Source: Pristiophorus japonicus
Taxonomy: Eukaryota
Assembly (NCBI RefSeq): GCF_044704955.1
Contig: NW_027251843.1
Coordinates: 186,001-250,000, forward strand
Length of the DNA: 64,000 nucleotides
Direction: 5' to 3'
Part shown: positions 4,301 through 56,428 of the stretch, piece after piece
How the letters are laid out: each line of letters starts with the position of its first letter
Numbering within the stretch: position 1 is the first letter of the stretch
Notes under the pieces: generated by a model
Told to the model about the DNA's origin: nothing
Seen by the model: the letters and a program-made list of their open reading frames with translations, nothing else
Databases searched by the model: none
Made by a program: the position numbers and the translations under genes

Positions 4301-4751
4301 ACAAGTCAATAAGTGGCAGCTTGTCAAACGCCTTTCGAAAGTTCTGATACACATCAACCGTGATATTTCTGGATATATCTAGATTCCTTCCAAAGTGTAT
4401 CACCTTGCATTCATTATATTAAAGTTCACATTACTGCACAGTCTGCATGTTTCCTAACGTCTATTGTGAGATGTCGTTCAGTGAAATAGTTCTTCAATAT
4501 TTGAAGCAAAGCATCAGTTTATTGAGTAAAATACCAATAATAATTAATAAATAAAGGCAGCCATCTACAACTGTGTGAGGTTTTGGAACTTTACCAGAAA
4601 GTCAGAGGGTTTATTGCTGAGTAAACTATTGGCTTGTCACTTTGTACTGCTGCTATTCGGTAAAGCTGGTGAAGATATTATTTATTTCAACTAACACAAC
4701 CGCTGCCCACTTTACATGAGCCTCACTTTGTTCTTTCCATATATAAATATG

Positions 4752-6080
4752 CACCCAATACCCTCAGACCCTCCACACCCCACCCAATACCCTCAGACCC
4801 CCCACACCCCACTCAATACCCTCAGACCCTCCACACCCCACCCAATACCCTCAGACCTTCTCCTCCCCACCCAATACCCTCAGACCCTCCACACCCCACT
4901 CAATATCCTCAGACCCTCCACACCCCACTCAATACCCTCAGACCCTCCACACCCCACCCAATACCCTCAGACCCTTCCCTTCCCACCCAATACCCTCACA
5001 CCCTTCCCTTCCCACTCAATACCCTCAGACCCTCCACACCCCACTCAATACCCTCAGACCCTCCACACCCCACTCAATACCCTCAGACCCTCCACACCCC
5101 ACCCAATACCCTCAGATCCTCCACACCCCACCCAATACCCTCAGACCCTCCACACCCCACCCAATACCCTCAGACCCTTCCCTTCCCACCCAATACCCTC
5201 AGACCCTCCACACCCCACCCAATACCCTCAGACCCTCCACACCCCACTCAATACTCTCAGACCCTTCACACCCCACTCAATACCCTCAGACCCTCCACAC
5301 CCCACTCAATACCCTCAGACCCTCCACACCCCACTCAATATCCTCAGACCCTCCACACCCCACTCAATACCCTCAGACCCTCCACACCCCACTCAATACC
5401 CTCAGACCCTCCACACCCCACTCAATACCCTCAGACCCTCCACACCCCACTCAATACCCTCAGACCTTCTCCACCCCACTCAATACCCTCAGACCTTCTC
5501 CACCCACCCAATACCCTCAGACCTTCTCCACCCCACCCAATACCCTCAGACCCTCCACACCCCACCCAATACCCTCAGACCTTCTCCACCCCACCCAATA
5601 CCCTCAGACCCTCCACACCCCACTCAATACCCTCACACCCTTCCCTTCCCACCCAATACCCTCAGACCCTTCCCTTCCCACTCAATACCCTCAGACCATC
5701 CACACCCCACTCAATACCCTCAGACCTTCTCCACCCCACCCAATACCCTCAGACCCTTCCCTTCCCACCCAATAACCTCAGACCTCCTCACCATACCCAA
5801 TATCCTCAGACCCCCCCACCCAATACCCTCAGACCTTCCCCACCAATACCTTCAGACCCCCTCAGTCCACCCAATATCCTCAGACCTCCCCCACCCCACC
5901 CAATACCCTCAGACCCCTCCCACCCACCCAATACCCTCAGATGCTCCCCACCCCACCCAATATCCTCAGACCCCTCCCACCCACCCAAAACCCTCAGACC
6001 CTCCACCCCACCCAATACCCTCAGACCCACCCCCACCCAATACCCTCAGACGCTCCATCCCACAGAATATCCTCAGGCCT
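4752..6080. repeat. 29-bp C-rich minisatellite
   Basis: CCCAATACCCTCAGACCCTCCACACCCCA unit, about 45 copies, degenerating at the 3' end. Confidence 0.95.
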
Positions 6081-19150: not shown

Positions 19151-19994
19151 GATTCGTCTGAGCTTTCGACCACACATCCGCAGCATAACTAAGACTGCCT
19201 CTTTCCATCTCTGTAACATCACCCGTCTCCACCCCTGCCTCAGCTCATACGCTTTTGAAGCCCTCATCCATGCCTATTAACTGTAGACGCGACTATTCCA
19301 ATGCACTCCTGGCTGGCCTTTCACATTCTACCCTGCGTAAACGAGAGGTGATTCAAAACTCGACTGTCCGTATCCTAACTCGCACCGAGTCCCGCTCACC
19401 CATCACTCCTGTGCTCGCTAACCTACATCGGCTCCCAATTAAGCAAAGTATTGGCGGGAGGAAAGGTGATGGGTTTTGGGGATATAAGGAGCTGCTTTGC
19501 AACAAGCTCCAGCTCAGGAGGAAGAAAGCTCCGGAAACAGCTCCGCAAAAAGCTCAGCAAAAAGCCCAGGAAAAAGCCCAGGAAAAAGCCCAGGAGCAAG
19601 ACATTCAGGAAGAAGCTGCAAGCAAGACAACGGGCAATCAGGGTGAGCATATTGCCTGCGCCTACACATCCACAAGACCACTTAGCTGTGTGAGGGGGTG
19701 ATTGTAAGTCCCAACCAAACCCAAGGGGTTTAGTGCTGGGGGGGTCCTGTGTTAGTTTATTTCACGGGAGGGTTCTTTTATTCAGCCGTGGTAACTTAGC
19801 ATGACAGGGCTTATTGGACAAGCCAGGGTTGTACTGTTTTGCACTGTTTATGAGTGGTATTGTTAATCTTATTAAACACAATACAGTTGAGCCTGAAAAA
19901 CGTGTGTCCGAGTCTGACCTGTCCAGAAAATTCCTATCGTCCAGAACTTGTAGTAGGAGGTGTGTTTTCAGTATGCCCGAGAAAACCACCTACA

Positions 19995-20715
19995 GGCACC
20001 CCCTCCAACAGTGCAGCACTCCCTCAGTACTGCCCCTCCGATAGTGCGGCACTCCCTCAATACTACTGCTCCGGCAATGTGGCACCCCCTCAGTACTGAA
20101 CCTGTGACAGTGTGGCACTCCCTCAGTACTGCCCCTCTGACAGTGCGGCACTCCCTCAGTGCTGCACCTCCGACAGTGCGGCACTCCCTTAGTACTACAC
20201 CTGCGACAGTGCAGCTCTCCCACAGTACTGCCCCTCTGATAGTGCAGCACTCCCCCTCTGACAGTGCAGCACTCCCTCAGTACTGCCCCTCTGACAGTGC
20301 GGCACTCCCTCAGTACTGCACCTCCGACAGTGCGGCACTCCCTTAGTACTACACCTACGACAGTGCAGCACTCCCTCAGCACGGCCCCTCTGACAGTGCG
20401 GCACTCCCTCAGTACTGAACCTGTGACAGTGTGGCACTCCCTCAGTACTGCCCCTCTGACAGTGTGGCACTCCCTCAGTACTGCCCCTCTGACAGTGCAG
20501 CACTCCCTCAGTACTGACCCTCCGACAGTGCAGCATATCCTCAATACAGCTCCTCTGACACGGCAGCACTCCCTCAGTAATGCCCCTCCGACAGTCTGGC
20601 ACTCCCTCAGTACTGCCCCTCTGACAGTCTGGCACTCCCTCAGTACTGCGCTCTGACAGTGCAGCACTCCCTCAGTACTGTCCCTCTGACAGTGCGGCAT
20701 TCCCTCAGGACTGCA
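19995..20715. repeat. About 33-bp SINE-derived minisatellite
   Basis: CCCTCTGACAGTGCGGCACTCCCTCAGTACTGC unit; the same motif occurs once in the SINE at about 27180-27220. Confidence 0.92.
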
Positions 20716-22879
20716 CAGTAGTGTATATCTTTAATTTGCACTCAGGTCCCGGGAGTGGGGCTTGAACCCACGATACAACATTGCATCACTGCATGCCGTT
20801 CAGTCTGAGCTGTGAGTCATATCCCGACCTCAGTTGGAACAGCTAACTCAGAACAAACAACAACAGCAACTTTTATACAGCACCTTTAACACAGTAAAAC
20901 TCCCCGAGTGCTTCACAGGAGCGTTATAGAATAAAGATTGACAGCGAGCCACCTAAGGAGACATTGAAATTTGCAGCTCAGTCAAATTGTGAGGGAAATT
21001 GGCAGTGCTGTCTTCATACCAAAAGGGGGCGATGTTGGTTCTGAAAAGACCAAATTTTTGGACAATTTCTGTGTCACTCAATTGATTGGTTTGTAAAACC
21101 CGTTTGTACCAAACCTCCAGTCAGGTTTGCAGAATAATTTCCAGTTCCCCACGTGTCATTTGATGGTGGATCTCAGCGTGTATCTCCTCGTCCGCTCGTG
21201 AGGCGGTGTCTCAGAGCGATTGGAGGGTCAGCAGCCACTCCGCACTGCAGTGAGCATCGGCAGGCCATTCCACTGTGGGAGGCCTCTCCGCGGAGCTCGG
21301 TGCACGGGGTATATCCACACAGAGACGCTCTGCCGCCAGGTACAGCAGCAACAACCTGCATTGCTATAGCAACTGGAACATTAGAACAACATCCCGAAGC
21401 AGCTGATAGAGGCGTAATCTGGTCAAAGTGTTGCTGAGCCAAAGGGGGAGGAGCTGGGAGGGTGATCAAAACACTCAGTCACAGATTGGGTTTGAAGGGA
21501 GGTCTTAAAAGAGGAGAGGGGTGGAGTGGCAGAGAGGTTTAGGGAGCAGGGAGTTAGGGCCCAGGCAGCTGAAGGCACAGCCCCCAATGGAGGGGAAAGG
21601 GAAGGGGGGATGGATAAGAAGCCTGAGCCAGATACAGCGGCCCCTGAACACAACAACAACTTGCATTTATATAGCGAGTGTTGTGACAATGACAGACAGT
21701 GAGAATATAACCCTGATCATGTAACACAGTATTTGCAGCACTTGACACTGTGGGGAAAGCTTGTAATTTTAATCCATGAGCTGTACATAAGCGAGAGCAG
21801 GACCTGTTTGTGGCCGGTGCGGAGATCACCACTTACAGAAGGTAGTTACTGCAGGGAATTCAGGGCCACAGTGACCTCCTGGACTAGTTTCCATCGCCTG
21901 GGGAGCGGGGGTGGGGGCGGGGGGTGGCAGGGTCGGAGAGGAGTTTCCCAGATTTATTTCCCCCAATGGGTTTTTTAGCTGGTTTTCCACCTCTCCCAGG
22001 AGATCAGGTAGTTTTGGGTGGGGTGGAGAGTCTATACTGTGATACACCAGGTATCACAATTGTGTGGGACGGGCTGGATGGACCACAGGGTCTTTACCTG
22101 TCCGTCACTGTTCGCGGGTTTGGGTTTCAAAAATGTAGAGCTGAATTGGAAAGAAAGACTTGCATTTATATAGCGCCTTTCACCACCTCAGGTCATCCCA
22201 AAACGCTTTACAGCCAATGAAGTACTTTTGAAGTGTAGTCACTGCGGTGATGGAGGAAACACGACAGACAGTTTGTGAACAGCAAGCTCCCACATGTGAC
22301 TATGACCAGATAATGGGCCTAAATTGCGTATCGCCCCGAGTGGGGCGGTAACTTTTCCCATGCCCAAGTCCCGCGGAAGCGAAATTGGGGTCACGGCCCC
22401 TGACAGGAAGTGGAGCGCATTGTGGCGCGCTGCACTTCCCCTGGGGATGGGCTCGAGGGCGAGTGTCGGGCTGCACCATCGCGGCACCGACCCCGCCACA
22501 TCGGCACAGAAAGGCCCGACCGGTAAGTTGGCAAAAACAAATGGCAGAGCGCACCTCGCAGTAAGGTTCACCCCACGAGTGAAGTGCTGACCGGTTCGTG
22601 GCCCACAGGCCTGGCGTGGACACAGCTCACAATCTGTTTCCTGGTTCTTGGGTAGGACTTGAACCCACAACTTTCAGACTCAGAGGCGAATGTGCTGCCC
22701 ATTGAGCCACAGCTGACTGAGCTGCAAACTTAAGGCACATTAATGGCCCATCGACGGTGTTCGCCCTCAGTGGGGTGAACAAATCCAGAAATTATGGCCT
22801 GAATGATGTCGGCCGGGCCATTATTTGCTTTTTTATCGTTTTAAGTTTATTTCTGCTGTGTTAGTCCTTAGTCTATTAA

Positions 22880-27315: not shown

Positions 27316-28582
27316 CTAATACTCAAAATCATATTGGATTGTTGTATAAACATCTGCAGTGCAGGGTTGGCACATATTCAGCACTGAAATGGTTAACAGT
27401 AAGAGTCGGTAAAGACTGAGTGTCCCGTTAAGATGCTGTTCACTGGTAGGAAGCTCGAACTGTAGATGGGTGGATACAGGGGAAACAGGCTCAGCAGTGA
27501 GAAAGCTCAGATCACACACAGATCGGTGCAGAAGCTTCTAGATTGCGTTTAAAAGCTTGCTGCCCAGCACCGGGGTGAGGTCAAGGGTGAGGCTACAATT
27601 AGCCTCAGTGTACCGGGGTCAGGCAGGGTCACTGATCCCAATGATCCCGTGACCTTCTGGAAAGTCAGAATGCGCGGACATTAGGCGAGGGTCAGGATCA
27701 GGGTCCCACTTCAATGAATTTATATAGCGCCTTTCACAACCTCAAGACTTCCCAAGGTCCTTTACAACCAATTGCACACAGGAAGATTTAAGAGGTTGTT
27801 GCCTGGACTGGAGAATTTTAGCGATGAGGAAAGATTGGATAGGCTGGGGTTGTTTTCCGTGGAACAGAGGATGCTGAAGGGAGACCTTATTGAGGTGTAT
27901 AAAATTATGAGGGGCTTAGATAGAGTGGATAGGAAGATCTATTTCCCTTAGCAGAGGGGTCAACAACCAGGGCATAGATATAAAGTAATTGGTGGAAGGT
28001 TTAGAGGGGATTTGAGGGGAAATATCTTCAGCCAGAGGGTGGTGGGGGTCTGGAACTCACTGCCTGAAAGGGTGGTAGAGGCAAAAACCCTCACCATATT
28101 TAAAAAGTACTTGGATGTGCACTTAAAGTGCGGTAACCTACAGGGCGACAGACCAAGAGCTGGAAAGTGGGATTAGGCTGGGTAGCTCTTTGTCGGCCGG
28201 CGCAGACACGATGGACCGAATGGAGTCAGCCAGTGGCTCAGTTCGTCGTGCCCTCGCCTCTGAGTCAGAATTTGCGGGTTCAAATCTCACTCCGATGTCC
28301 TGGCCAATATTTATTCCTCAATCAACACAACAAAAACAAGTTATTTGGTCATCATCACATTGCAGTTTGTGGGAGCTTGCTGTGCACAACTTGGCTGCTG
28401 CATTTCCTACATTACAACAGTGAGTACACTTCAAAAAGTACTTCATTGGCTGTAAAGCATTTTGGGATGTCTGGTGGTCATGAAAGGCGCTATATAAATG
28501 CAAGTCTTTCTTCCTTTTCTCAGAGCCGAGCGTGCTAGTGACTGAGCAACGGCTGACAACTCACGGTCGATTAGCCTGACAC

Positions 28583-28990
28583 GCTCAGTCTCTGGGCTCA
28601 CACTGGGACAGTGAGCTCACTTGGGGAGCTCAGTCTCTGGGCTCACACTGGGACAATGAGCCCACTTGGTGAGCTCAGTCTCTGGGCTCACACTGGGACA
28701 ATGAGCCCACTTGGGGAGCTCAGTCTCTGGGCTCACACTGGGACAGTGAGCCCACTTGGGGAGCTCAGTCTCTGGGCTCACACTGGGACAGTGAGCCCAC
28801 TTGGGGAGCTCAGTTTCTGGGCTCACACTGGGACAGTAAGCCCACTTGGGGAGCTCAGTCTCTGGGCTCACACTGGGACAGTGAGCCCACTTGGGGAGCT
28901 CAGTCTCTGGGCTCACACTGGGACAGTGAGCCCACTTGGGGAGCTCAGTCTCTGGGCTCACACTGGGACAGTGAGCACACTTGGGGAGGG
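28583..28990. repeat. 45-bp minisatellite (about 9 copies) in the J-C intron
   Basis: GCTCAGTCTCTGGGCTCACACTGGGACAGTGAGCCCACTTGGGGA unit. Confidence 0.95.
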
Positions 28991-31118
28991 GAACTGTGCC
29001 CCAGCCAGAGGTAGTTCCTTCAGGAGTGAGATGGGGAGCAGATGACGGGCAGCCTGTGGTGTAGAGGGGAGACATTTCACCGGCCGAGGGCAGGTGCTGA
29101 GCCCGTTTACCTGTAAGAATGTGATAAGTGGATGGGGAAAGTGGGCCGGGCACTGAGTTAACGTCCTGTGTTGCTGGTGGAACTCTTGCTGTCTGCTCCG
29201 TCACGTGTGACAAACACGCAGACACATCAGACGGACATCTGGGATGGAGGGATTGTCCTATGGAGAGATTGAGTAGACTAGGCCTATATTCTCCAGTGTT
29301 TAGAAGAATGAGAGGGGATCTCATTGAAACATACCAAATTGTGACAAGGCTTGACAGGGAAGATGCAGGGAGGATGTTTCCTCTGGCTGGGGAGTCTAGA
29401 ACCAGGGGTCACAGTCTCAGAATAAGGGGTCGGCCATTCAGGACTGAGATGAGGAGAAACCTCTTCACTCAGAGGGTGGTGAATCTCTGGAATTCTCTAC
29501 CCCAGAGGGCTGTGGAGGTTCAGTCCTTGAGTATATTCCGGAGATCGATAGATTTTTGGATATTAAAGGAATCGAGGGATATGGGGACAGTGCAGGAAAG
29601 TGGAGTTGAGGTGGAAGATCAGCCATGATCTCATTGAATGGCGGAGCAGGCTCGAGGGGCCAAATGGCCTCCTCCTGCTCCTAATTGCCATATTCTTATG
29701 GAACATTAGTTCGTGTTCTGGGGATTTTCTGGTGGGTCCAGGTTTAATCAGCAGGGGAATTGTGCGAGTCCCAGTTAATAAAAAGGAAAGAGAAATTAAA
29801 GAAAGACCTGCATTTATATAGCACCTTTCACACCTCAGGATGTCCCAAAGTGCTTCACAGCCAATGAAGTACATTTTTGAAGTGCGGTCATTGTTGTAAT
29901 GTGGGAAACACGACAACCAATTTGTGCACAGCAAGCTCCCACACACAACAATGAGGTAAATGAGCATTTCAAGCGATGTAGGTTGCGGGATAAATATCGG
30001 CCTGAACTCGAGCCACAGAAACAGCAACTGAGAGTCTCCCCACAACCCTGGAGCACTGCAGCCGCCGGATTGCGAGCCCTGCTGCCCCTGTTTGTGATCA
30101 GAAGTTGGACAGGAGGTGAGCGGGGGCTGGACAGATCAGAGTTGGAGCTGGGGGAGGCGGGACCTCGGGAGTGTCAGTGTGCTGAGGCTGAGCTCAGTTA
30201 TATCAGAGACTGTGACAGGAGCACAGACTGCCCCCAGCGAGCTCACTCACTCACACCCACACTCTGCCCGTGTCTCACACACCGTGTCTGTCACACTGAG
30301 ACAGGCAGGAGGCTCGGGAGTGATTTCCGGGGATGGTGCAAGGATGGGACCGCAGTGTGTCAACGTCCAGATCTCCTCCACACGGTGGGTAACAGTTCGT
30401 TACTTATACTTTGCTGGGTGAAGGCGGAGTGTGTGTAAAGGAATACAGCCGGGCTCCCTGTCATACACAGCACTCTTCAATTGACGCTTTCATTCACCGC
30501 AGCTCCCCACCATATTATATAACCCATACAGAGGCACAGGAGAGGGTGCAGAGAAGGTTTCCAAGGATGGGACCAGAAATGCGAGGGTGTACATATCAGG
30601 AAAGGATGAACAGGCTGGGGCTCTTTTCTCTTGAGGCCGAGGAGTGACCAGATAGAGGTCTTTAACATTAGGAAAGATTTTGATAGAATGGATACAGAGA
30701 GAGTGTTTCCACTTATGGGGAAGAGCAGAACTAGAGGCCATCAATATAAGATAGTCAGCAAGAAATCCAATCGGGAATTCAGGAGAAAATTCTTTACCCA
30801 GCAATTGGTGAGAATGTGGAACTGGCTACCACAGGGAGTGATTGAAGTGAATAGTATCGATGTATTTAAGGGGAGGCTAGACAGGGATATGAGGGAGAAG
30901 GGAATCGAGGGTTATGCTGATAGATTTAGATGAGGAAAGACGGGAGGATCGAGTGGAGCATAAACACTGGCATGAACTGGTTGGGCCGAATGGTCTGTTT
31001 CTGGGCCATGTATCCGATGTAATCCTGTGTAAACTAAAATCTTCCACTATTCAGCATTTGTGTCTTCGAAAGATTCAGTATTTAAAGTGTTAATAACGGA
31101 GCATTGGGGTTTACTTAC

Positions 31119-43105: not shown

Positions 43106-43566
43106 TGTGGAAGAAAGAATCTATGAATCCATGGCTTATGGTAAAGGGAAGGGTTAAATTCTGTTTTTGCTATATTTGAAGAAATAATAGGACTAGAACA
43201 ACACCCACACTTTTTAGCCTTAAAACTTAGAAATGTAATTAAATGACTATCCGGTATTAAAAGGGAGTCTCCTGATATTCTGCTTATCAGACTGTGAACA
43301 GGGAGAAACTATGCAAGGACAGATAGAGTGTGTGCCTCCCGAGACGACCTTTGTACTCACGGAACTAATGAATAAGATTCCTTTTCTATTTCTGTATTCT
43401 ATTTCTGTATAAAGATAGGGACATTTTGCTTGTACAGGAGAGTTTTCTGCCTTGGTACGGTCCAAGCAGGCTCTCCGAGATATTTTGCTTTTTTAAATAA
43501 AATTCTCTCGAAGCACGATTCTGAAAGCCTCCGCCTGAGTTAATTAACTGAGAAATTTCCTCGACA
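43106..43566 (+). repeat. ERV 5' LTR (461 bp)
   Basis: TGTGG...CGACA; TATAAA and AATAAA inside; direct repeat of 52051-52511. Confidence 0.96.
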
Positions 43567-43571
43567 GATTC

Positions 43572-43590
43572 TGGCGTAGTCCGGCAGGAT
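43572..43590 (+). promoter_or_regulatory. Primer-binding site, tRNA-Ser
   Basis: TGGCGTAGTCCGGCAGGAT versus the complement of the tRNA-Ser 3' end TGGCGTAGTCGGCAGGAT (one extra C). Confidence 0.8.
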
Positions 43591-43910
43591 CTCTAAAAAA
43601 CGAGATCCAAAAGAACTAAATTTAACTTTTAAAGGGAAAAGAGGAATTTTAAGGACCTTCCTAGCTGAAAGGAGGAAGGTGCCTCGGCCGTCCTAGCTGA
43701 AAGGGGGACGAGCTGCCGAGATCCCCTGGAGGGTGAGGCATAATTTAAGGTAGCTACCGCAAAGAAGCTAAAATAACAAAAAGGCAAAAGGAGACCCCGA
43801 GCTGAGCGGAAAAGAGAACACCGGTGAGCGCTTTGTAAATTATTGTATATTTTGTAGGATTGTCCCAACTCTCATTTCAGAAAAGATCGCGAGACGTTGC
43901 ACCCGGAAGA

Positions 43911-45557
43911 ATGGGAAACGGCTCTAGTCGAGCAGGGCGCTCGCACCCAGCTCCTAGAAAAGGAAAGAAAGACGACCTCTCAACTGAAAGAATGAAAGTA
44001 CATCCTAAGACTGAGAAAAGAATCCGTAAGGTAGCAAAGCAACGAGAGAAGGTAGGAGATCCTATTGTGCCGCCCGGCTCGCCGGCAGACACTGTAATTA
44101 AAGAAACAGGAGACGACAGATACGCGGTAACGTTTAGTAGCGATTTGTACGGTTGGTCTGATGGGGATTGGCCATATGGAGGAAGTTTTAAATTGACCTT
44201 AATTGAGGAATGGAGACAGACCACCAAAGATGGGGCGGGGGTCCCCACTTGGGATAAAGATTATATGGAGAATTGTTTTAAAAAATGGACAGAGGTGGCA
44301 AAAAGGCACCAGCCCCCTAAAAATAAAAAGAAAGAGGAGGAGGGTAAGGAGAAGCCCCCTCCCTCTTACAGCCCCCCCGAGAGCCCCAGTTATGACCGCT
44401 TCCCCTGTCGGCTTATATCCCCGTCTTCCAACCACCAAGCCGGATGATTGGCAGGAGATCATAGAAATAGTGGCTGCCCAGCTAGATCAGGCCTCTAGGC
44501 GACGAATGCAACCACGACCCCAGAACCCACCAGAGGATGAAAACGGGGAAGGAGGGGCAAGTGGAGGAGCCGAAGGCGAAAACCCCAACCCTGACCCTGG
44601 AATGAATACCAGGAATACCATAAGACAGGCCGATTCCACCACTACCCCCACGACACAAGCCCCCCGTGTAATGATTGGAACCACGGCTGTCCTAAAGCCC
44701 TGGAAGCTCGGGATATGATATCAGCCACCCCTAATCCTGTTAAGAAGCCAGTAGCCTTTCATAACTGGCTTGAGCAAACCTGTACCATTTATAACCCCCT
44801 CCCCGGAGATGTGAAATTATTACTGCAGGCAGCATATGGGTCCTCTTGGCAGGGGGTAAAAGATATGTTCCCTATACCCACCGGCGAAAACGGAGATTGG
44901 CGGGAAGATAATGAGGAAGAAGGAAATGAGTCCCGGGAACATTGGTTGCAGCACAGGGGCAAGGATGCCATACTAAAGGGAGCTAAAAAGCATGGAGATA
45001 TAGGGGAAGTCACGCGCTGTCTGCAGAAAGCAGAAGAATCAATAATAGATTTTGCAGGCAGATGGAAAAATAGTTGAGACGAGCATGCAGCAATACCAAT
45101 GGATCAAAATGAACCTTTGGCAGTGCAAACCTTGTTAAATTGTATGTTGCCGCAACACACGAGAACCTATAAAATTAAGGTTTTGGACTGGCAAGGAAAA
45201 AGTTGGAAGGAAACAATTACAGTCTTGGCCAACATGGATAGGGAGGGACTATTCACCTATAAGGAAAATAAGGCTAAAACAGCAGGTCAGTACCATCAGC
45301 AAAAGGGAAGAGAACAAGCACAGAATAATAGAGGAGGGTTTGGGGGACGAGGACGAGGAAGAGGGAGAGGACAGTGGCCCCAACGAGACCGCTCCCAAGA
45401 TGAGTGTAGAAATTGTGGAAGGAAAGGGCATTGGGCTCGCGATTGCAGATGCCCCCCGAAACAGGGTGGAGGGTTACAAGGGGATTTCCCCAAACCTCCA
45501 CCTTCATTGGCCCCTCAGTTTTCGTTCTCTAACCCCAACCCGCACCAATCAGCATAG
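43911..45557 (+). pseudogene. gag: ERV gag (two frameshifts, one stop)
   Basis: MGNGSS myristoylation start, WPYGGSF matrix motif, PPSY and YPRL late-domain motifs, CRNCGRKGHWARDC zinc knuckle, TAG in frame with pol. Confidence 0.9.
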
Positions 45558-48500
45558 GGATGCCCCGGAGGCTTAGTGGTACAGGCGGCAGCCCTCCACT
45601 TATCAGCAGACATCGAAGAAAACCCTTTGGCAGTAGTAAAAGTAGGAGACACTTATGTGAAATTCCTGGTGGATACCGGTGCTACTATGTCTTCTGTACC
45701 ATCCTCTGTGGGATTACCTGTAAGCAACACCACCGTCTTAAGTATGGGTGTGGCCGGTAGCCCCATGAAAGAATTTTTATCTGAACCTACCAAATTGATA
45801 ATTGAAGGACAACCAGTTAATGATGAGACTTTGATAGTCTCTAAAACAACACCTCTCCCTTTATTGGGAAGACAGACTTTGTGCAAACTAGGAGCCACAA
45901 TTTATTGCACAAAGGAAGGAATGTACATGGAGCTCCCTCCAAATAAAATTCATCAGTTGTTTAATGGGATTAAAGAAGAGAAAAGGGAGGATAACAAAGA
46001 AAAGGCTGCCTTCTATTGTTGGCAATTGAATGGCAACTTCTACTCTCCTTTGATACATGAAGTTATACAAAATTTAAAAGCTAAAATCGACCCTAATACT
46101 GAAGAATTGATGTATATAATTTTGACAAGCATTCAGGCAGTTCAGCTTCATTGTACAGCCTGGTACACTCGACAAAAAGCTGAAACTTACCAGTGTTTGG
46201 TACAATCCTTTTTAAAAAAAGAAGAAATAGTAGAAGCTACGCCCCACATTTATTTTGGACCAGAAGGATTGGGGGTAGCCATGGATTTGACACCCTTACA
46301 GCAGCAGCGGTATAGAGAAGCGAACTCGACACCCCATCTGACATTGGCTACAAAACCGCCAGCGAAAACAAAAGATATGGGTCCGATGATTGTAGGAATA
46401 GAAAAAGAAAAACAGCAACAAGGCTATCAACCTTGGGCAGTAATAAAACTGCAAAATGTTCAGATAGACTTTATCACCCACAACAGGGGGATTCTCCAGT
46501 GGAAAGGTAAAAATCACGCCTCCACTTTTGAAAAACAGCAACCCCCGGAACAACCAAGCCCTAAGCTGCCAATGGCATTGAATCAAGTATCTTCTGAACT
46601 TTGGGCAAAGCATAAGAATCATGTTGGGCAAGTACATTCTGCAGTACCCCATCGGGTACAATTGATAAAGAACACCGTGTTACCAAGCATTAGACAGTAC
46701 AGACTGCCTCCAGAGGCAGAAAATGGGATAGAGCCAGTCATTTCTGCATTGTTGGAACAAGGAGTTTTAAAAAAGACACAGAGCCCGTGTAACACTCCGA
46801 TACTGCCCATACCAAAGGTTAATAGGCCGAATGAATGGAGATTTGTGCAAGATCTGAGAGCTATTAATAAGATAGTAGTCCCTATCACCCCTGTGGTACC
46901 GGACACCAACATTATACTATCTGCTATACCACCAACAGCAACTGTCTTTACTGTGATAGACCTGTGTTCAGCTTTTTTCTCCATCCCTTAAATCAAGAAA
47001 GTCAGTATCTGTTTGCTTTCACCCACAAAAGCAGCAGTACACATGGACCAGATTGCCCCAAGGATACACCGAAAGCCCCGCAGTATATGCAGCAGCAGTA
47101 AAAAGAGACCTTGATGACTGTTCATTATCAGACCAGTCTGTGCTGTTGCAGTATGCGGACGATTTGCTTGTGGCTTCTAGCCACGGATACAGGTGCGTAC
47201 AAGACTCCCTAAAACTGTTACAGCACCTATGTGAAAGAGGGCACCGAGTGTCGTTACCAAAGTTACAATTTTGTCAGACTCAAGTCCAGTACCTGGGTTT
47301 TCACATATCTCAAGGGCAGAGGCAGCTAGGACCAGAAAGAATTCAGACAATTCAAAGTGCCCCCATACCAAAGACAAAGAAGGATATCTTGTCATTTTTG
47401 GGGATGGTTGGGTACTGTAGACAATGGATCCCCGATTATCGAGAATGGGATGCGGTCCTAAGATCAGCTGCCCTAAATGATGCCCCACCCAAGGTGGAGT
47501 GGACCCCAGAGAGAGAGGAGGCATTTAAACAGTTAAAGAAAGCCATTACTAATGCTCTGGCGTTGGGACTTCCGAATTATGGTAAACCTTTTCAGATGTA
47601 TGTGAATGAGAAAGAAGGATTTGCAACCGCAGTACTAACCCACGAACATGGTGGGGGAAATAGACCAGTTGCTTATTATTCGGTTTTGCTGCCTCCAGTA
47701 GTAAGGGGAATGCCAGCATGTCTACGTGCTGTAGCTGCTACTGCAGTCATGGTGGAGAAGTCGGTACCTATTGTTTTGGATTATCTATGTGCTGTCATTA
47801 CAGCCCATGCTGTGTTATTACTTTTGAATTCAGCTGCCACACAACACTTTACAGCGTCTAGAAGAACAGGTTATGAAGTATTACTGCTGTCACACCCTAA
47901 CTATACCTTTCGACGCGCACCGGTAGTAAACCCAGCCACCTTTCTTCCTACTAAAGAATAGAGGATCCAGACCAGCATGATTGTCTGTTAACAGTGGAAA
48001 TAGCCACCTTACCAAGACCAGATTTGCTCACAGAGCCCATGGACAATCCTGATCTTATTCTCTATACGGATGGATCATCACATAGGCCGTCGGATGACTT
48101 GCTGTTGGCAGGCTATGCTATTGTAAATCCCCACGAAACTGTTGAAGCATTCGCCCTGCCTCCCGGAACCTCGGCTCAGGCTGCTGAATTGTTTGCCCTC
48201 ACTAGAGCTTGTATAATAGCTAAAGATCATACTGCTAATATCTATACTGATTCCAGATATGCATTTGGTGTGGTCCATGATTTTGGACAACTGTGGAAAA
48301 ACAGAAGCTTTATCACCTCTGGTGGAAAGCATATTAAGCACTCTCAACTGGTGCTTAATCTATTAGATGCCATTCAGTTGCCAAGTAAGGTAGCCGTCAT
48401 CAAATGTGCAGCTCACACAACCGGTGAGGATGAAGTATCAGTAGGAAATAGGAGGGCTGACGAGGCAGCCAAACAGGCCACTTCGGCACAGGCAGACTGC

Positions 48501-49712
48501 CTTCAAGCAGTCTCAGTCTCCCCTCCACAAGTACTTGACATCCAACAACTTAAAACAGCCCAACAACAAGTTACCATGCAGGAAGGAAGAACTTGGGAAA
48601 ACCAGGGTTGTTTTCTCAAAAACGACATCTGGTGTCACCCTGATGGGCGAACTGTTTGCCCTAAATCTCTATTTTTGCCCCTGTCTCGCCTAGCACACGG
48701 TCAGGCTCAAATGGGCAAAGGAGGGATGATACATGCTATTAATGCACAGTGGTATGCACCAGGAATAACAGTAGTAATTGAGAAAGTTGTGAGAACATGC
48801 CAAATTTGTCAAAAAAATAACAGAGGTAAAACACCTGCTGAATATGATCATCTACCCCAGCCAAGTATGCCCTTTGAAAATTTGCAAATTGATTTTATTC
48901 ACACGCCTCCAGTATCAGGTCTTAAGTACCTATTAGTCATAATAGACATGTTCACAAGGTGGGTAGAAGCGTACGCCACGAGGAGAGACGATGTCCGAAT
49001 AGTAGTAAAAATTCTATTTAAAGAAATAGTACCAAGATATGGGATACCTATGGGAATCAACAGTGACAGGGGAACACACTTCACCGGAAAAATAGTGCAA
49101 AACCTTGCAGAAGCGTTAGGTTTCCAGTGGAAGTTACATATACCATATCAGCCACAGTCCTCGGGAATGGTAGAAAGAGTAAATGGGATAATAAAATCTA
49201 CCCTTACCAAGGTATGCCAGGAGACTGGACTAAAGTGGCCAGATGCCTTACCATTGGTATTGTATACAATGAGAAACCAGAAAAACCGAAACACTGGTTT
49301 GACACCACATGAAGCCTTATTGGGAAGACCAATGCCTACTGGCGTAAAACCACCACTGGCAGCTGAAAAAATAGCATTAATTTGGAATGATGAAAAATCA
49401 CTAAAGTATGCTCAGGCCATGTGTGAAATAGCAAGGAGTCTGCATGAACAGATAAAGCAGACACAGGTGCCCCCGTCGGAAGGAAATATGCACCCTTTCA
49501 GGCCTGGAGACCAACTGCTGGTAAAAACATTAAACAAAGAATCCTTTTCTCCTCGGTGGAAAGGACCATATCAGATAATTCTCACAACACGAACCGCGCT
49601 GAAGTTGGAAAAGCATCCAAATTGGGTGCATGCAACCCATTGTAAATTATTTTCCCGACGAAATACAGCCAAAAGAAAAGGCATCGAACCAGGACGTACT
49701 ACGATTGCCTGA
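45558..49712 (+). pseudogene. pol: ERV pol: protease - 2H phosphoesterase - RT - RNase H - integrase (frameshifted near 46990-47040 and 47960)
   Basis: LVDTGA protease; VQDLRAIN, LPQG, YADD RT; TDGSS/AAEL/YTDSRY RNase H; IDF..SDRG..MVER integrase; WKGPY. Confidence 0.95.
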
Positions 49713-49810
49713 CTAAGAAAAAGGCCATCTTCTCGCTGAAGAACTGTACCTGCTCTTGCATTAAATTAAATATTTGGACTTGAAAGTACTGCCCAAAAGT
49801 TCAGGAACGG

Positions 49811-49966
49811 ATGTCAGAGCTCATTTGTGTGCCAGTTTGGGCCTTTATTATTTGGGCCACTGTTACTATCGTGTGGACGTGTTGTTATTGTAACGACTTA
49901 ATTCAAGAGTGGTATAGAAACAAACAAGAAAGGGAAGATGGGAAGGGACTCTTGGAAAAATTATAA
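49811..49966 (+). CDS. Putative retroviral accessory ORF, 51-aa single-pass membrane protein overlapping the env start
   Basis: MSELICVPVWAFIIWATVTIVWTCCYCNDLIQEWYRNKQEREDGKGLLEKL*, translated by hand; below the ORF-track cutoff. Confidence 0.55.
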   Translation: MSELICVPVWAFIIWATVTIVWTCCYCNDLIQEWYRNKQEREDGKGLLEKL

Positions 49967-52124
49967 ATGGACGTTAGGTATACTGATCATTTTAGCGACA
50001 GGGAACTCCCGGCAGGAGGAAGAAGTTCTAAAAGAAGGAAGAGTATGGAAGGGAAATATGGTATGGGAAAGAAGTAATAGTGCAAGGCAACAAGGCAATT
50101 TTATATGCACAGTAGGCCAAAGTTGTAAAGTAGGGAACTTTACGACACGATGTGAGGCGTGTGGAATGAAAGAAGAAAGAGGGGAATTCCAGTTTATATT
50201 GGGGAAAGGGTATCAGTTGTTCATAGAATACCAGGCCGATGTGTGGATGAAGTGTACCCACAGCACGGGGAAAAACAAGAGATGGGGGTACATAGGAGGG
50301 CCGGACGAGAGAAAAGACTTCCTCCTTTATTCATTTACAAGTATGGTAGAAGGGCAGCGGATGTTGTGCATGAATAACACCCCGGTGAATGGAGGAGACC
50401 CATTCGTGGTAAAATGGTCAGTAAAAGAATCTGGCCACCCAGAAGACCGGGACCCGGGACATCTAAAAAGGATACTGACCACTTGCATCCCAGTGGTAAG
50501 ATCCCCAGGTGTATTAAATCTAACAATACGAATTAAATATCCCCCAAAGAAAGAAGATGGTTGCCACACAACCAGTGTTAAGGTATCTTTTGAAAAAGAA
50601 AGACCCCAAAGAAAGAAACGGGATGTATTAGAGACTGTGTTAGGTGGAGTGGGAGCAGGAATAGGAGCATTGAACTCCATGGATATTGAGACCCTACAAA
50701 ATAAAATCCAGGCCGTCGGAGGACTGGTAGGGGAAGATATAAAAATCAGAAATGCCTGGGATGAAGGATTACAGCAATTACAGATATCAGGTTACGTCCT
50801 AAATGAAATGACCTGGCAACAGAATGAAAGGGTAGAGAAGGAAATAGAGAACCTAATAAAGGAACAACAGGGAGTAACAAGTACACCCATTGCCTGTTTA
50901 AAGAAATGATCAGACAGCTATTAAGAGCCGAGTTAGAAAGGAAAATATTATCCTTCCATGCTAACACATGGGAAAGGTTGCTGGAAATTAACAAAAGGGA
51001 TAAGCTTCTTAATTTAACCATTAACCCTCAAAAAAAAGATATACCAGTTGTAATTCAAAAGGATGTAAAGTTACTGTGGAGATAGTAAGTAAGACACGAA
51101 AATAAATTTGGTGTCAGTTCCAAGTAATGCCCCAACTGTTTGGACAGAACTTCTGGTACCCAGAATTTAAAGGAGATTGGGTCGATGAGAAGAATATGAC
51201 ACATCACCAGATGCTAGGTGGCCATTCGGAATGGTATGTCCCTATCAGACCGCCATATACGAACCATGCTCACTGCAGCACTCCATTGGAGTATGTAAAT
51301 GGGAATTAAAGCCAACAAATGACACTGATATTACGGAAATAGGACAGAATGAGGTCTGTGTGACAGGAAATAAACCTGTCTCTCTGGATGGAATTTTGTA
51401 TAAACCCCCCATTAATAAATGCGTGAGAAGAGTCTACTCCCTGTATGACCCTGAAGTAAAAACAACTTATACCTTTGGGCAATGGCAAAATGTAGAAAAA
51501 TATCTGTCTATGCACAAGATTGAACCCTTACCCCCCGTAATTAATCTGACCAGACTGCACAATTTGATACGGAATGACAAGAAAATTGAGGAAGCTCTGT
51601 CAAAGCAAGGCAGAAACATCCACCAATTTAGAGTCGAAATGAGTTACAAGAAGGGGCAACTAGTAAGAATTGTAGACGAAGTCACCTCTTTGACAGTACA
51701 CCACTGGTGGGATGTGTTTACCGGATGGTCCCCAAAAGCTACAGCAGTACTGAAGCTTGCTATACACCCCATAGTAATCGTAGGTGTGGTTATGCTTGTA
51801 TTATTAATAATCCTTTGCGGAATGTGGATAAAATAAAAAAATGTAATTAGTCAAGTAATAGGCCTGATCTCCGAAATAGAAAGGAAAAGTGTGTGCATGA
51901 AAGGAAGGTTAAGTTGCTTAGAGGAAAAGGTTGATGAAGACGAATATCTCAAAATGCGACCCTATCCTGAAGGGTATGAACCCCCTTTTGCGCAAGAAGA
52001 GAATATAGGAAATTGTGTTGATCTGAAAAAAAAATCAACAAGAAGGGAATTGTGGAAGAAAGAATCTATGAATCCATGGCTTATGGTAAAGGGAAGGGTT
52101 GAATTCTGTTTTTGCTATATTTGA
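49938..52124 (+). pseudogene. env: ERV env (disrupted around 50900-51230, stop at 51834-51836, in-frame tail to 52124)
   Basis: Signal peptide, RKKR furin site followed by a Gly-rich fusion peptide (DVLETVLGGVGAGIGALN), heptad region, membrane anchor IVIVGVVMLVLLIILCGMW. Confidence 0.88.
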
Positions 52125-52511
52125 AGAAATAATAGGACTAGAACAACACCCACACTTTTTAGCCTTAAAACTTAGAAATGTAATTAAATGACTATCCGGT
52201 ATTAACAGGGAGTCTCCTGATACTCTGCTTATCAGACTGTGAACAGGGAGAAACTATGCAAGGACAGATAGAGTGTGTGCCTCCCGAGACGACCTTTGTA
52301 CTCACGGAACTAATGAATAAGATTCCTTTTCTATTTCTGTATTCTATTTCTGTATAAAGATAGGGACAATTTGCTTGTACAGGAGAGTTTTCTGCCTTGG
52401 TATGGTCCAAGCAGGCTCTCCGAGATATTTCGCTTTTTAAAATAAAATTCTCTCGAAGCACGATTCTGAAAGCCTCCGCCTGAGTTAATTAACTTAGAAA
52501 TTTCCTCGACA
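52051..52511 (+). repeat. ERV 3' LTR (461 bp)
   Basis: About 8 substitutions versus the 5' LTR by manual comparison; preceded by AAGAAGGGAAT. Confidence 0.96.
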
Positions 52512-52967
52512 CTGCCACTGTCCCGTTTATTTTTTTTATTTGTTCCTGCGATGTGGGCATCACCGGAAAGGCCAGCATTTATTGCCCATCCCTAATTGCC
52601 CTTGAGAAGAACCGCTGTTCCTTTTTTTAATAGCAGTTTGGTACAACTGAGTGGGGTAAGATTTTGTACAAGTTTGCTGTAACTTGACCAGATTTTATGT
52701 ACCAGCATGCCTCGCGAGGCCAACAGGACTTTCTGCTGCACAAATGTCCATTAAAGCTGCTGAACGCTGCAAGCTGTCCTGTGGTTGAGCTACTTCGAAA
52801 GCTGTGTTTCACAGGTAAGGGAAATAGTGGCCTTCAGACCGTGAGAACTTTGCGAGAACAGACTCAGAAACAGGAACATCAGCACACAAGAAGTCTCCAG
52901 TTTTGCATTCGACTGATTAACTGTCTAGCTGGTTGATCAGGAGAGGAGAAGAACATCTACGGCCATT

Positions 52968-54028
52968 CCTCCCATCGAATGAGACATGGACACACTGAGG
53001 GACTGCCCATTACTCCCATCGAATGGGACACGGACACACTGAGGGACTGCCCATTACTCCCATCGAATGGGACATGGACACACTGAGGGACTGCCCATTA
53101 CTCCCATCGAATGGGACACGGACACACTGAGGGACTGCCCATTACTCCCATCGAATGGGACACGGACACACTGAGGGACTGCCCATTACTCCCATCGAAT
53201 GGGACACGGACACACTGAGGGACTGCCCATTACTCCCATCAAATGGAACATGGACACACTGAGGGACTGCCCATTACTCCCATTGAGTGGGACAAGAACA
53301 CACTGAGGGACTGCACATTACTCCCATCGAATGGGACATGGACACACTGAGGGACTGCCCATTACTCCCAGCGAATGGGACACGGACACACTGAGGGACT
53401 GCCCATTACGCCCATCGAATAGGACACGGACACACTGAGGGACTGCCCATTACTCCCAGCGAATGGGACACGGACACACTGAGGGACTGCCCATTACTCC
53501 CAGCGAATGGGACATGGACACACTGAGGGACTGCCCATTACTCCCATTGAATGGGACATGGACACACTAAGGGACTGCCCATTACTCCCATTGAATGAGA
53601 CACAGCCACACTGAGGGACTGCCCATTACTCCCATTGAATGGGACATGGACACACTAAGGGACTGCCCATTACTCCCATTGAATGAGACACAGCCACACT
53701 GAGGGACTGCCCATTACTCCCATTGAATGGGACATGGACACACTAAGGGACTGCCCATTACTCCCATTGAATGAGACACAGCCACACTGAGGAACTGCCC
53801 ATTACTCCCATCGAATGGGACATGGACACACTGAGGGACTGCCCATTACTGCCATCGAATGGGACACGGACACACTGAGAGACTGCCCATTACTCCCATC
53901 GAATGGGACATGGACACACTGAGGGACTGCCCATTACTCCCATCGAATGGGACACGGACACACTGAGTGACTGCCCATTACTCCCATCGAATGCGACACA
54001 GACACACTGAGGGACTGCCCATTACTCC
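52968..54028. repeat. 44-bp minisatellite (about 24 copies)
   Basis: CTCCCATCGAATGGGACACGGACACACTGAGGGACTGCCCATTA unit with no variable spacers. Confidence 0.95.
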
Positions 54029-56428
54029 TAGTTTTGTAGTGTAAAAAGAGCTTCAAAATTAGTATTAGAGGCTTGTTTATAACCCGGGATTACTGAGTGT
54101 AACAGTACTATTAGAGACTTACTTGTAACCTCTTGGTGATTTTAAGTAAAGAGAACTTATTCCAGAAATTTTTGTCTTGAGCTGTCTGTTCCACAGGTCC
54201 GAACTCTATAAACTGTTGGACGGTGTGAGGGGTAAATCCACACATCTTACAGTGACTCACTGGGCCATTAAGTGTTAACCACATGATCACCATTATTAAC
54301 ACAAGCTTTTTTATTCCAGATTTATTTAATTGAACATATATTTCCCAGCTGCTGTGATGGGATTTGAACTCATGTCTGTAGGATTATTGTTTTACTTTTC
54401 TGAATTATTAGCCCAGTAACATTACCACTATGCTTCCATTCCCCATTCCATGGGCTTCAACTTTGCTGGCAGGCCTATTATATGGCACTTTATCAAACGC
54501 CTTTTGGAATACGTCAACTGCATTGTCCTCATCAACCCTCTCTGTTACCTCATCAAAAAACTCAATCAATTTAGTTGAACACAATTTGCCTTTAATAAAT
54601 CCGTGTTGGCTTTCCTTCATTAATCCTCCTCAGATAATGAAGCAATCTGTGCCCGCATGCAGCAAGACCTGGAAGACATTCAGGCTTGGGTTAATAAGTG
54701 GCAAGTAACATTCATGCCACACAAGTGTCAGGCAATGACCATTCTCCCAACAAGAGAGAATCTAACCACTGCCCCTTGACATTCAACGGCATTACCATCA
54801 CCAAACCTCCCACCATCAACATCCTGGGGGTCACCATTGACCAGAAACTTAACTGGACCAGCCACATAAATACTGTGGCTACAAGAGCAGGTCAGAGGCT
54901 GGGTATTCTGTGGCGAGTGTCTCACCTCCTGACTCCCCAAAGCCTTTCCACCATCTACAAGGCACAAGTCAGGAGTTTGATGGAACCTCTCCACTTGCCT
55001 GGATGAGGGCAGCTCCAACAATTCTCAAGAAGCTCGACACCATCCAGGACAAAGGAGCCCGCTTGATCCACCACCTTCAACACTCACTCCCTCCACCACC
55101 GGCGCACCGTGGCTGCAGTGTGTACTATGTACAAGATGCACTGCAGTAACTCACCAAGGCTTCTTCGGCAGCACCTCCCAAACCCACGACCTCTACCACT
55201 TAGAAGGACAAGGGCAGCAGGTGCATGGGAACACCATCACCTGTAAGTTCTCCTCCAAGTCACACACCATCCTGACTTGGAAAAATATAGTCCGTTCCTT
55301 CATCATCACAGGGGCAAAACCCTGGAACTCCCTCTATAACAGCACTGTGGGAATAAGAGAACACGGGGTTGGTGCTAATATATTAGCATGGATAGAGGAT
55401 TGGCTAACTAACAGAAAACGGGGAGTCAGCAAACGGTAACTAGTGGGGTTTCACAGGGATCGGTGTTGGGGCCTCAACTATTTACAATTTATGGTAATAA
55501 CTTGGATGAAGGGACCGAGTGTAAAAAATCAAAGAGCAAATTATTATTTAAATGAAGAGAGATTACAAAATGCTGTAGTACAGCAGGACCTGGGGTTCCT
55601 TGCGCATGAAACACAAAAAGTTAGTATGCAGGTACAGCAAATACTCAGGAAGGCAAATGGAATGTTGGCCTTAATTGCAAGGGGGATAGAGTATAAAAGC
55701 AGGGAAGTTCTGCTACATCTGTACAAGGTATTGGTGAGACCACACCGAGAGAACTGTGTACAGTTTTGGTCTCCTTATTATAAGGAGAGATTTATTTGCA
55801 CTGGAGGCAGTTCAGATAAGGTTCACGAGGTTGATTCCTGCCTGAGATGAAGGGGCTGACTTATGAATAAAGGTTGAGCAGGTTAATCAGAACATAAGAA
55901 ATAGGAACAGGAGTAGGCCATACGGCCCCTCCACCATTCAATAAGGTCATGGCTGATCTGATCATGGACTCAGCTCCACTTCCACGCCCACTCCACGTAT
56001 ACTCTTTGGAGTTTAGAAGAATGAGAGATGAACTTGTTGAAACATATAAGATTCTGAGGGGGCTCGACAAGGCAGATGCAGAGAGGATGTTTCCAGTCAT
56101 AGGAGAATGAAGAACTAGGGGGCAGAGTTAAGGAATAAGGGGTCGCCCATTTAGAATTGAGATGAGGAGGAATTTCTTCTCTCAGAGGGTTGTAAATCTG
56201 TGGAATTCTCTGCCCAAGAGAGCTGTGGAGACTGGGTCATTGAATGTATTTAAGGTGGAGATAGACAGATTTTTGAACGATAAGGCAGTAAAGGGTTATG
56301 GGCAGCGGGTAGGGAAATGGAGCTGAGCCCAGGATCAGATCAGCCATGATCTTATTGAATGGCGGAGCAGGCTCGAGGGGCCAAATGGCCTAGTCCTGCT
56401 CCTATTTCTTTTGTTCTTATGATTCTTT

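Follow-up and report, generated by a model that had tools for sequence, protein, structure and literature searches.

A small open reading frame (ORF) of 51 codons, located at 49811..49966 on the forward strand of the window (the whole 64,000-nucleotide stretch of Pristiophorus japonicus DNA analysed in this study), has been held as a protein-coding frame during the divergence of the viral sub-lineages which carry it. The ORF lies between pol and env of an endogenous provirus, and we regard it with considerable confidence as a real gene. Its product is predicted to be a single-pass membrane protein without a signal peptide, and the acidic dileucine motif of its tail (D-x-x-x-L-L, residues 43-48, 49937..49954), overlooked in the initial annotation, is its main feature. 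In the best reading, a single clade of epsilon-like retroviruses of sharks has this ORF as an accessory gene, and we lean towards a membrane adaptor as the role of its product.

The provirus and its small open reading frame

The provirus occupies 43106-52512 of the window on the forward strand, where all of its features are read, and is bounded by LTRs at 43106..43568 (5') and 52051..52512 (3'). The 5-bp target-site duplication CTGCC stands just before the first and just after the second, and comparison of the two LTRs gave 9 mismatches and one gap column over about 462 positions. At 43572-43589 lies the primer-binding site, which presumably is similar to a serine tRNA at its 3' end. In this provirus gag, pol and env are each broken. 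The gag gene (43911..45557) is spread over several frames, codes for a CCHC knuckle (zf-CCHC, E=1.2e-6) and is closed by a TAG which shares the frame of the protease. The pro-pol region (45558..49712) has shown an MLV-like RNase H, with MLV/XMRV RNase H as the top PDB matches, and an integrase C-terminal domain (MLVIN_C, E=1.2e-16); when compared with 27 of 30 close copies, the pol 3' end of the window copy is frameshifted around 49646. The env gene (49938..51836) has its own signal peptide, a furin site RKKR (50610-50621) and a fusion peptide, and is broken after codon 323. Because of the in-frame TAG which closes gag and of the MLV-like Pol, the provirus is a class I (gamma/epsilon-like) endogenous retrovirus (ERV), and the label 'epsilon-like' is suggested by the Pol class, the host and the Env relatives rather than by an RT tree against reference viruses.

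Between the protease and RT an insert of about 190 residues (45969-46556) was also observed, with two HxT motifs (LHCTAW and PHLTLA) which we take to be the 2H phosphoesterase pattern; Pfam and PDB searches with this insert gave zero match. CNPase ORFs are known from epsilon-like fish elements (PMC4977317). Elsewhere in the window, tandem arrays at 4636-5775, 52831-54142, 19933-20735 and 28493-29032, having periods of 29, 44, 33 and 45 nt respectively, sit among many LINE-like fragments.

The small ORF follows a non-coding spacer (49713..49810) which has accumulated many indels between lineages. The initial annotation had described an intact frame of 51 residues overlapping the env ATG in another frame, and inspection bore this out: the given protein sequence is encoded by 51 codons from ATG to TAA, and the env ATG stands at 49938. 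The start contexts, cggATGt for the ORF (weak) and aagATGg for env (strong), are also as described. An N-terminal hydrophobic helix, likewise proposed, is recovered by hydropathy in residues 4-24 (49820..49882). The best 19-residue Kyte-Doolittle window of the window protein starts at residue 4 with a value of 2.2, and in 7 of 7 lineages it starts at residue 4-5 with values of 2.2-2.6. AlphaFold2 has predicted a single helix over residues 2-50 (pLDDT 82, pTM 0.44), and a four-copy complex prediction, with a score of 0.05, gave no evidence in either direction. The tail carries 4-6 basic and 6-8 acidic residues and is net neutral to acidic. When both strands of the window were cut into 225-nt bins, an ATG-initiated ORF of 45-110 residues with an N-terminal hydrophobic stretch was found in 6 of 564 bins, the small ORF's own bin being among the 564, and only one of the 564 also holds the dileucine motif.

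Homology searches with the protein of the small ORF returned no relative. A single sequence gave zero candidates; a seven-row alignment gave 14, none at E<=1. The best match in the Atlas (0.79) is at chance level, and no PDB chain was obtained at E<=10. In Pfam nothing matched the window protein, and ten weak single-member matches were scattered across seven variants. For Env, the search among longer proteins yielded 0 of 2018 candidates, and the N-terminal 323 residues have no Pfam match. The Env family consists of uncharacterised proteins of sharks, ray, frogs and koala (P0001-P0064), of which the closest named members belong to sawshark (80% identity) and horn shark (42% identity), those of ray, frogs and koala being more distant. 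One member labelled as a Bacteroidales MAG protein (P0064) clusters with the koala Env-like proteins and is probably host contamination.

Conservation and coding constraint among the sub-lineages

The genome-wide search (5.9 Gb) produced 674 DNA and 660 protein candidate copies, of which 40 and 150 were scored. The ORF is open in 27 of 30 close copies (97-100% identity), and these say little. Copies were therefore also gathered through an integrase profile and through Env queries, so as not to select by the ORF, and this yielded eight sub-lineages, designated A to F, whose ORFs share 67-100% of their DNA sequence, the mean of the 28 pairs being 80%. In all eight the ORF ATG stands exactly 127 nt before the env ATG, and alignments of the ORF have zero gaps in 28 of 28 lineage pairs, that is, no indel over 126 nt. 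The spacer upstream of it has a length of 22-80 nt and an average of 3.75 gap runs in each pair; for 15 of the 28 pairs the two spacer lengths differ by a number not divisible by three, and the reading frame upstream of the ORF ATG is unconserved. The drift ends at the ORF ATG. The ORF diverges jointly with the 5' end of env while integrase remains near 93% identical.

A codon model fitted with IQ-TREE to 14 natural copies from seven lineages, chosen as open and not including lineage F, gave an omega of 0.53 over the 42 codons outside the env overlap (likelihood-ratio test against omega fixed at 1, p=0.016; likelihood profile about 0.33-0.89). The five other frames gave omega values of 0.87-1.80 and contain 14-76 stops. 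The constraint is modest, weaker than in the benchmarks of Env (0.30) and integrase (0.22, a rough value, from a set with two frameshifted copies). Between lineages the net pN/pS was 0.36 (bootstrap 0.22-0.55) after three non-colinear and two inverted copies had been dropped beforehand, and variable sites are distributed over the three codon positions as 18/17/31 (p=0.015). Residues 4-24 have undergone at least 20 changes among the eight lineages, none of them to a charged or strongly polar residue or to a stop (P=0.013), and the probability that the internal branches would by chance show neither a stop nor a lost ATG is about 0.009. These tests are not mutually independent, they rest on a short stretch and every lineage was drawn from a single genome; taken together, they suggest that a translated product is likely. 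The collection of relatives proposed in the initial annotation has therefore shown the ATG, the frame and the membrane segment to be kept in eight sub-lineages under purifying selection, and this supports its claim of a novel accessory gene. Its further description as a complex retrovirus holds in a loose sense only, namely that coding constraint points to one gene in addition to gag, pro, pol and env.

The dileucine motif is present in 125 of 128 copies, 82 of these 128 having been chosen with queries containing the ORF, and we take it to fit the [DE]xxxL[LI] definition of clathrin-adaptor motifs. It overlaps the first env codons, and its D shares bases with the env ATG and is thus partly forced by env. 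The overlap permits a test of which frame is guarded. In the codons of G-L-L there are five lineage-level base changes, and all five are silent in the small ORF while three alter Env; the two residues ahead of G-L-L vary (G/E and K/A/V/E). The CCYC cluster (residues 24-27, 49880..49891) did not behave in the same way. The initial annotation had pointed it out with the remark that juxtamembrane Cys are often palmitoylated. It is replaced by SYYF in lineage E, which has no cysteine at this site, by CGYC in C3 and by CCYF in D, so that a conserved palmitoylated cluster is not supported.

Losses of the ORF were also recorded. Lineage E has a TAG in the ORF in 32 of 90 matches (at codon 15 in the seven retrieved), lineage F has a TAA at codon 25 in four of four copies together with a broken env, and two copies have a common deletion of the first half of the ORF. 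Extra copies were chosen independently of the ORF, through an integrase profile and through Env queries. Among 52 copies chosen in this way, including five deleted ones, 36 are open and two of these are scrambled by inversion; in the Pfam integrase search, 31 of the 40 loci retrieved belong to other families without this Env or ORF. The same short inversion within the ORF, between small inverted repeats, occurs in two copies of two different lineages (L102 and L119). Since ORF-broken copies have spread, germ-line copying did not require the gene. The stop alleles weigh less because copies with a common env break have also spread in lineage E, and dispensability is what the word 'accessory' means. 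Lineage E itself appears to be a very young burst of near-identical copies, with one group sharing the ORF stop and another sharing the env break, and complementation in trans between these groups is possible.

Two other families of this genome have a related Env (about 25-36% identity), with env directly after pol and the ORF absent; the ORF is therefore a clade-specific gain, or an addition lost elsewhere. One of the two is an older family (L151-L166, L170, L186, L194-L196, L198) with about 30% identity in integrase and no MLV-type C-terminal match, for which an env exchange between distant retroviral groups seems likely from the sequences. The other is a third family (L187, L189 and L192) in which env follows pol immediately.

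Proposed expression route and competing explanations

The initial annotation had compared the arrangement with the leaky-scanning layout of Vpu and Env. The start contexts fit such a layout and the overlap with env is kept, but Pfam and PDB searches showed no homology to Vpu. Of the 119 copies with an ORF ATG, 113 show a pyrimidine at -3 of this start and all 119 a T at +4, while the env ATG has an A at -3. Out-of-frame ATGs between the ORF start and env occur in only 9 of the 119 copies, and in lineages C1 and D codon 7 is a further ATG of the ORF frame. The kept weak start followed by a strong env start would fit leaky scanning on a single message.

For the splicing of this message, the TTCAG noted 6 nt upstream of the ORF is indeed present and ends at 49804, but its AG is kept in just 29 of 68 copies of lineages A and B. 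A CAG placed 6-8 nt ahead of the ORF start is frequent in lineages A, C1, C2, C3 and D, but B and F lack it, as does E for the most part. Each of the eight lineage representatives has a 10-nt block (49740-49749 in the window) with a pyrimidine-rich stretch after it, and this block may be a better candidate for the splice region than the TTCAG. In three sequencing runs which resemble genomic DNA there were 32 joints, of which 15 were listed; none of these 15 is of the GT..AG type, and the joints resemble genomic deletions.

The mechanism which we propose has steps of decreasing certainty. With most certainty, the ORF would be translated from the env mRNA as its first, weak AUG, and most ribosomes would scan on to env. 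Second in certainty, the product would be a signal-anchored single-pass membrane protein with 3-5 residues outside and a charged cytoplasmic tail. The least certain steps, taken jointly, are that the D-x-x-x-L-L of the tail would bind clathrin adaptor complexes, and that the membrane helix would grip a host surface protein which hinders the virus, so that the host protein would be drawn into endosomes. This action would be like that of Vpu, Nef and EIAV S2, arrived at by convergence. It is a real possibility, though one to which we give somewhat less than an even chance, that a shark class I retrovirus has evolved, independently of the lentiviruses, a Vpu-type minimal helix and clathrin-adaptor motif, co-translated with Env and removing a surface restriction factor.

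Among the alternatives, the product may escort or sort the virus's own Env, or the ORF may be mainly an upstream ORF tuning the amount of Env. The fixed 127-nt spacing, the kept weak context, the few out-of-frame ATGs and the divergence of the ORF along with the env 5' end can all be read in this manner. A purely regulatory upstream ORF, however, could do without any constraint on its amino acids, whereas here omega lies under 1 and both the hydrophobicity and the L-L are kept; moreover, the two related-Env families manage without such an ORF. This explanation is considered unlikely.

The initial annotation had left the choice between a viroporin and a restriction-factor antagonist, and here the retained dileucine motif speaks for a trafficking adaptor. 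Viroporins are numerous among the small membrane proteins of viruses, and a small single-pass protein with a charged tail and with invariant residues T17 and T19 in its helix would be in keeping with a homo-oligomeric pore or release factor in which the dileucine merely places the protein in the right membrane. But T17 and T19 appear from the sequence to lie on different helix faces, a charged pore-lining residue is absent and the best-kept feature of the tail is a sorting motif, so that a viroporin is also given a low probability.

The stretch may otherwise act as RNA, that is, as a U-rich element belonging to the env splice region or to an enhancer, with codons that are hydrophobic by accident. 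The U-rich stretch is there, the AGs at 49817, 49835 and 49907 are kept in 69 of 70 copies of lineages A and B, and the common stop alleles have spread in lineages E and F. Against this stand the three-base periodicity, the frame-specific omega, the absence of indels, the kept ATG and the small chance, already given, of no stop or ATG loss; and no folding signal was detected, since in 7 of 7 lineages the ORF RNA folds no better than shuffled sequences (z-scores +0.7 to +2.3). We hold a non-protein element to be rather improbable.

A role as a FAST-like fusogen of cells, which has been suggested for the sORF2 of insect retrotransposons, is very improbable. The small ORF codes for a small membrane protein with juxtamembrane cysteines and a tyrosine, within a retroelement, and some sORF2 genes lie downstream of pol (PMC11952523), but its outside end has 3-5 residues as compared with about 30, it begins with Met-Ser and has no N-terminal glycine, its tail is neutral to acidic rather than polybasic and the element has an env of its own. 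The reading as a frameshifted N-terminal part of Env, to which single copies with a deletion fusing the ORF to env (L010, L067 and L148) might lend colour, is the least probable and is largely refuted, as in all eight lineages the two frames stay separate with an unchanged offset, and every lineage has an Env with an ATG and a signal peptide of its own; across these lineages neither a frameshifted Env nor a lack of conservation was seen.

Comparison with known accessory proteins

The favoured reading, that of an accessory membrane adaptor, can be compared with systems already described. Vpu has about 81 residues and overlaps the env start. The small ORF codes for 51 residues, also with a predicted N-terminal membrane anchor and a cytoplasmic tail bearing an acidic dileucine-type motif, which is DxxxLL here and ExxxLV in Vpu. 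In contrast to Vpu, the DSGxxS phosphodegron is missing from all lineage variants, there is no sequence match (Pfam for the window protein and seven lineage variants; PDB at E<=10), and the element is a class I shark provirus with an MLV-like Pol and not a lentivirus. The absence of homology and of DSGxxS and the non-lentiviral genome rule out that the ORF is Vpu itself. Vpu is expressed from a bicistronic message with env (PMC3900648) and, as described in PMC3315493, PMC4552633 and PMC4018625, requires ExxxLV to route tetherin.

Like Vpu, the S2 gene of EIAV is located at the env start. S2 and Nef are myristoylated, whereas the small ORF protein would be single-pass, and it shares no homology with them. 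EIAV S2 (ExxxLL), Nef and MLV glycoGag are reported to have unrelated sequences and to remove SERINC5 by means of a membrane anchor and a clathrin-adaptor motif (10.1101/065078, PMC11769393), and the small ORF protein also pairs a predicted membrane anchor with an adaptor-type motif. Tetherin is said to predate the split of the cartilaginous fish (PMC6002735) and fish SERINCs are described as restricting retroviruses (PMC10085909); tetherin and SERINC are thus candidate target classes which are old enough.

The accessory genes of WDSV are placed before gag and after env. With WDSV, WEHV and lineages II/III of CmiERV, the provirus shares the class I Pol, the in-frame TAG at the gag-pol junction and the cartilaginous-fish host range (PMC4422223). 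Some epsilon-like fish and amphibian retroviruses carry extra ORFs, for example with CNPase or macro domains (PMC4977317), but in the available text of PMC4977317 and PMC4422223 none was seen with a small membrane ORF between pol and env. The short single-pass sORF2 proteins of MDG1-group retrotransposons (PMC11952523) are similar in residing in a retroelement and differ in the ectodomain of about 30 residues, the myristoylation site and the polybasic tail, all of which the small ORF protein lacks, as well as in the presence of env here. Our literature search, which had most subscription journals, repeat libraries and supplements outside its scope, met with no description of a membrane ORF between pol and env in a retrovirus of fish or sharks, and none is mentioned in the accessible portions of PMC12690878, 10.1101/2024.07.05.601823, PMC5046194, 10.1101/2021.11.23.469661 and PMC4422223.

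This ORF has a bearing on several aspects of retroviral biology. Its protein is missing from the databases searched, and the short pol-env spacers of fish ERVs can conceal genes which are missed by gene callers. Accessory proteins mark the means by which a host blocks a virus, and a protein of 51 residues with a distinct sorting motif and eight natural variants offers a cheap bait for the surface protein restricting shark retroviruses. The ORF also tests whether the strategy of Vpu, Nef and S2 is peculiar to lentiviruses and mammals or has arisen repeatedly among jawed vertebrates. If the proposed reading is true, it would add another independent origin of an 'adaptor of adaptors' to those of Vpu, Nef, S2 and glycoGag, the first in cartilaginous fish within the reach of our searches, and it would provide a direct probe for ancient membrane restriction factors.
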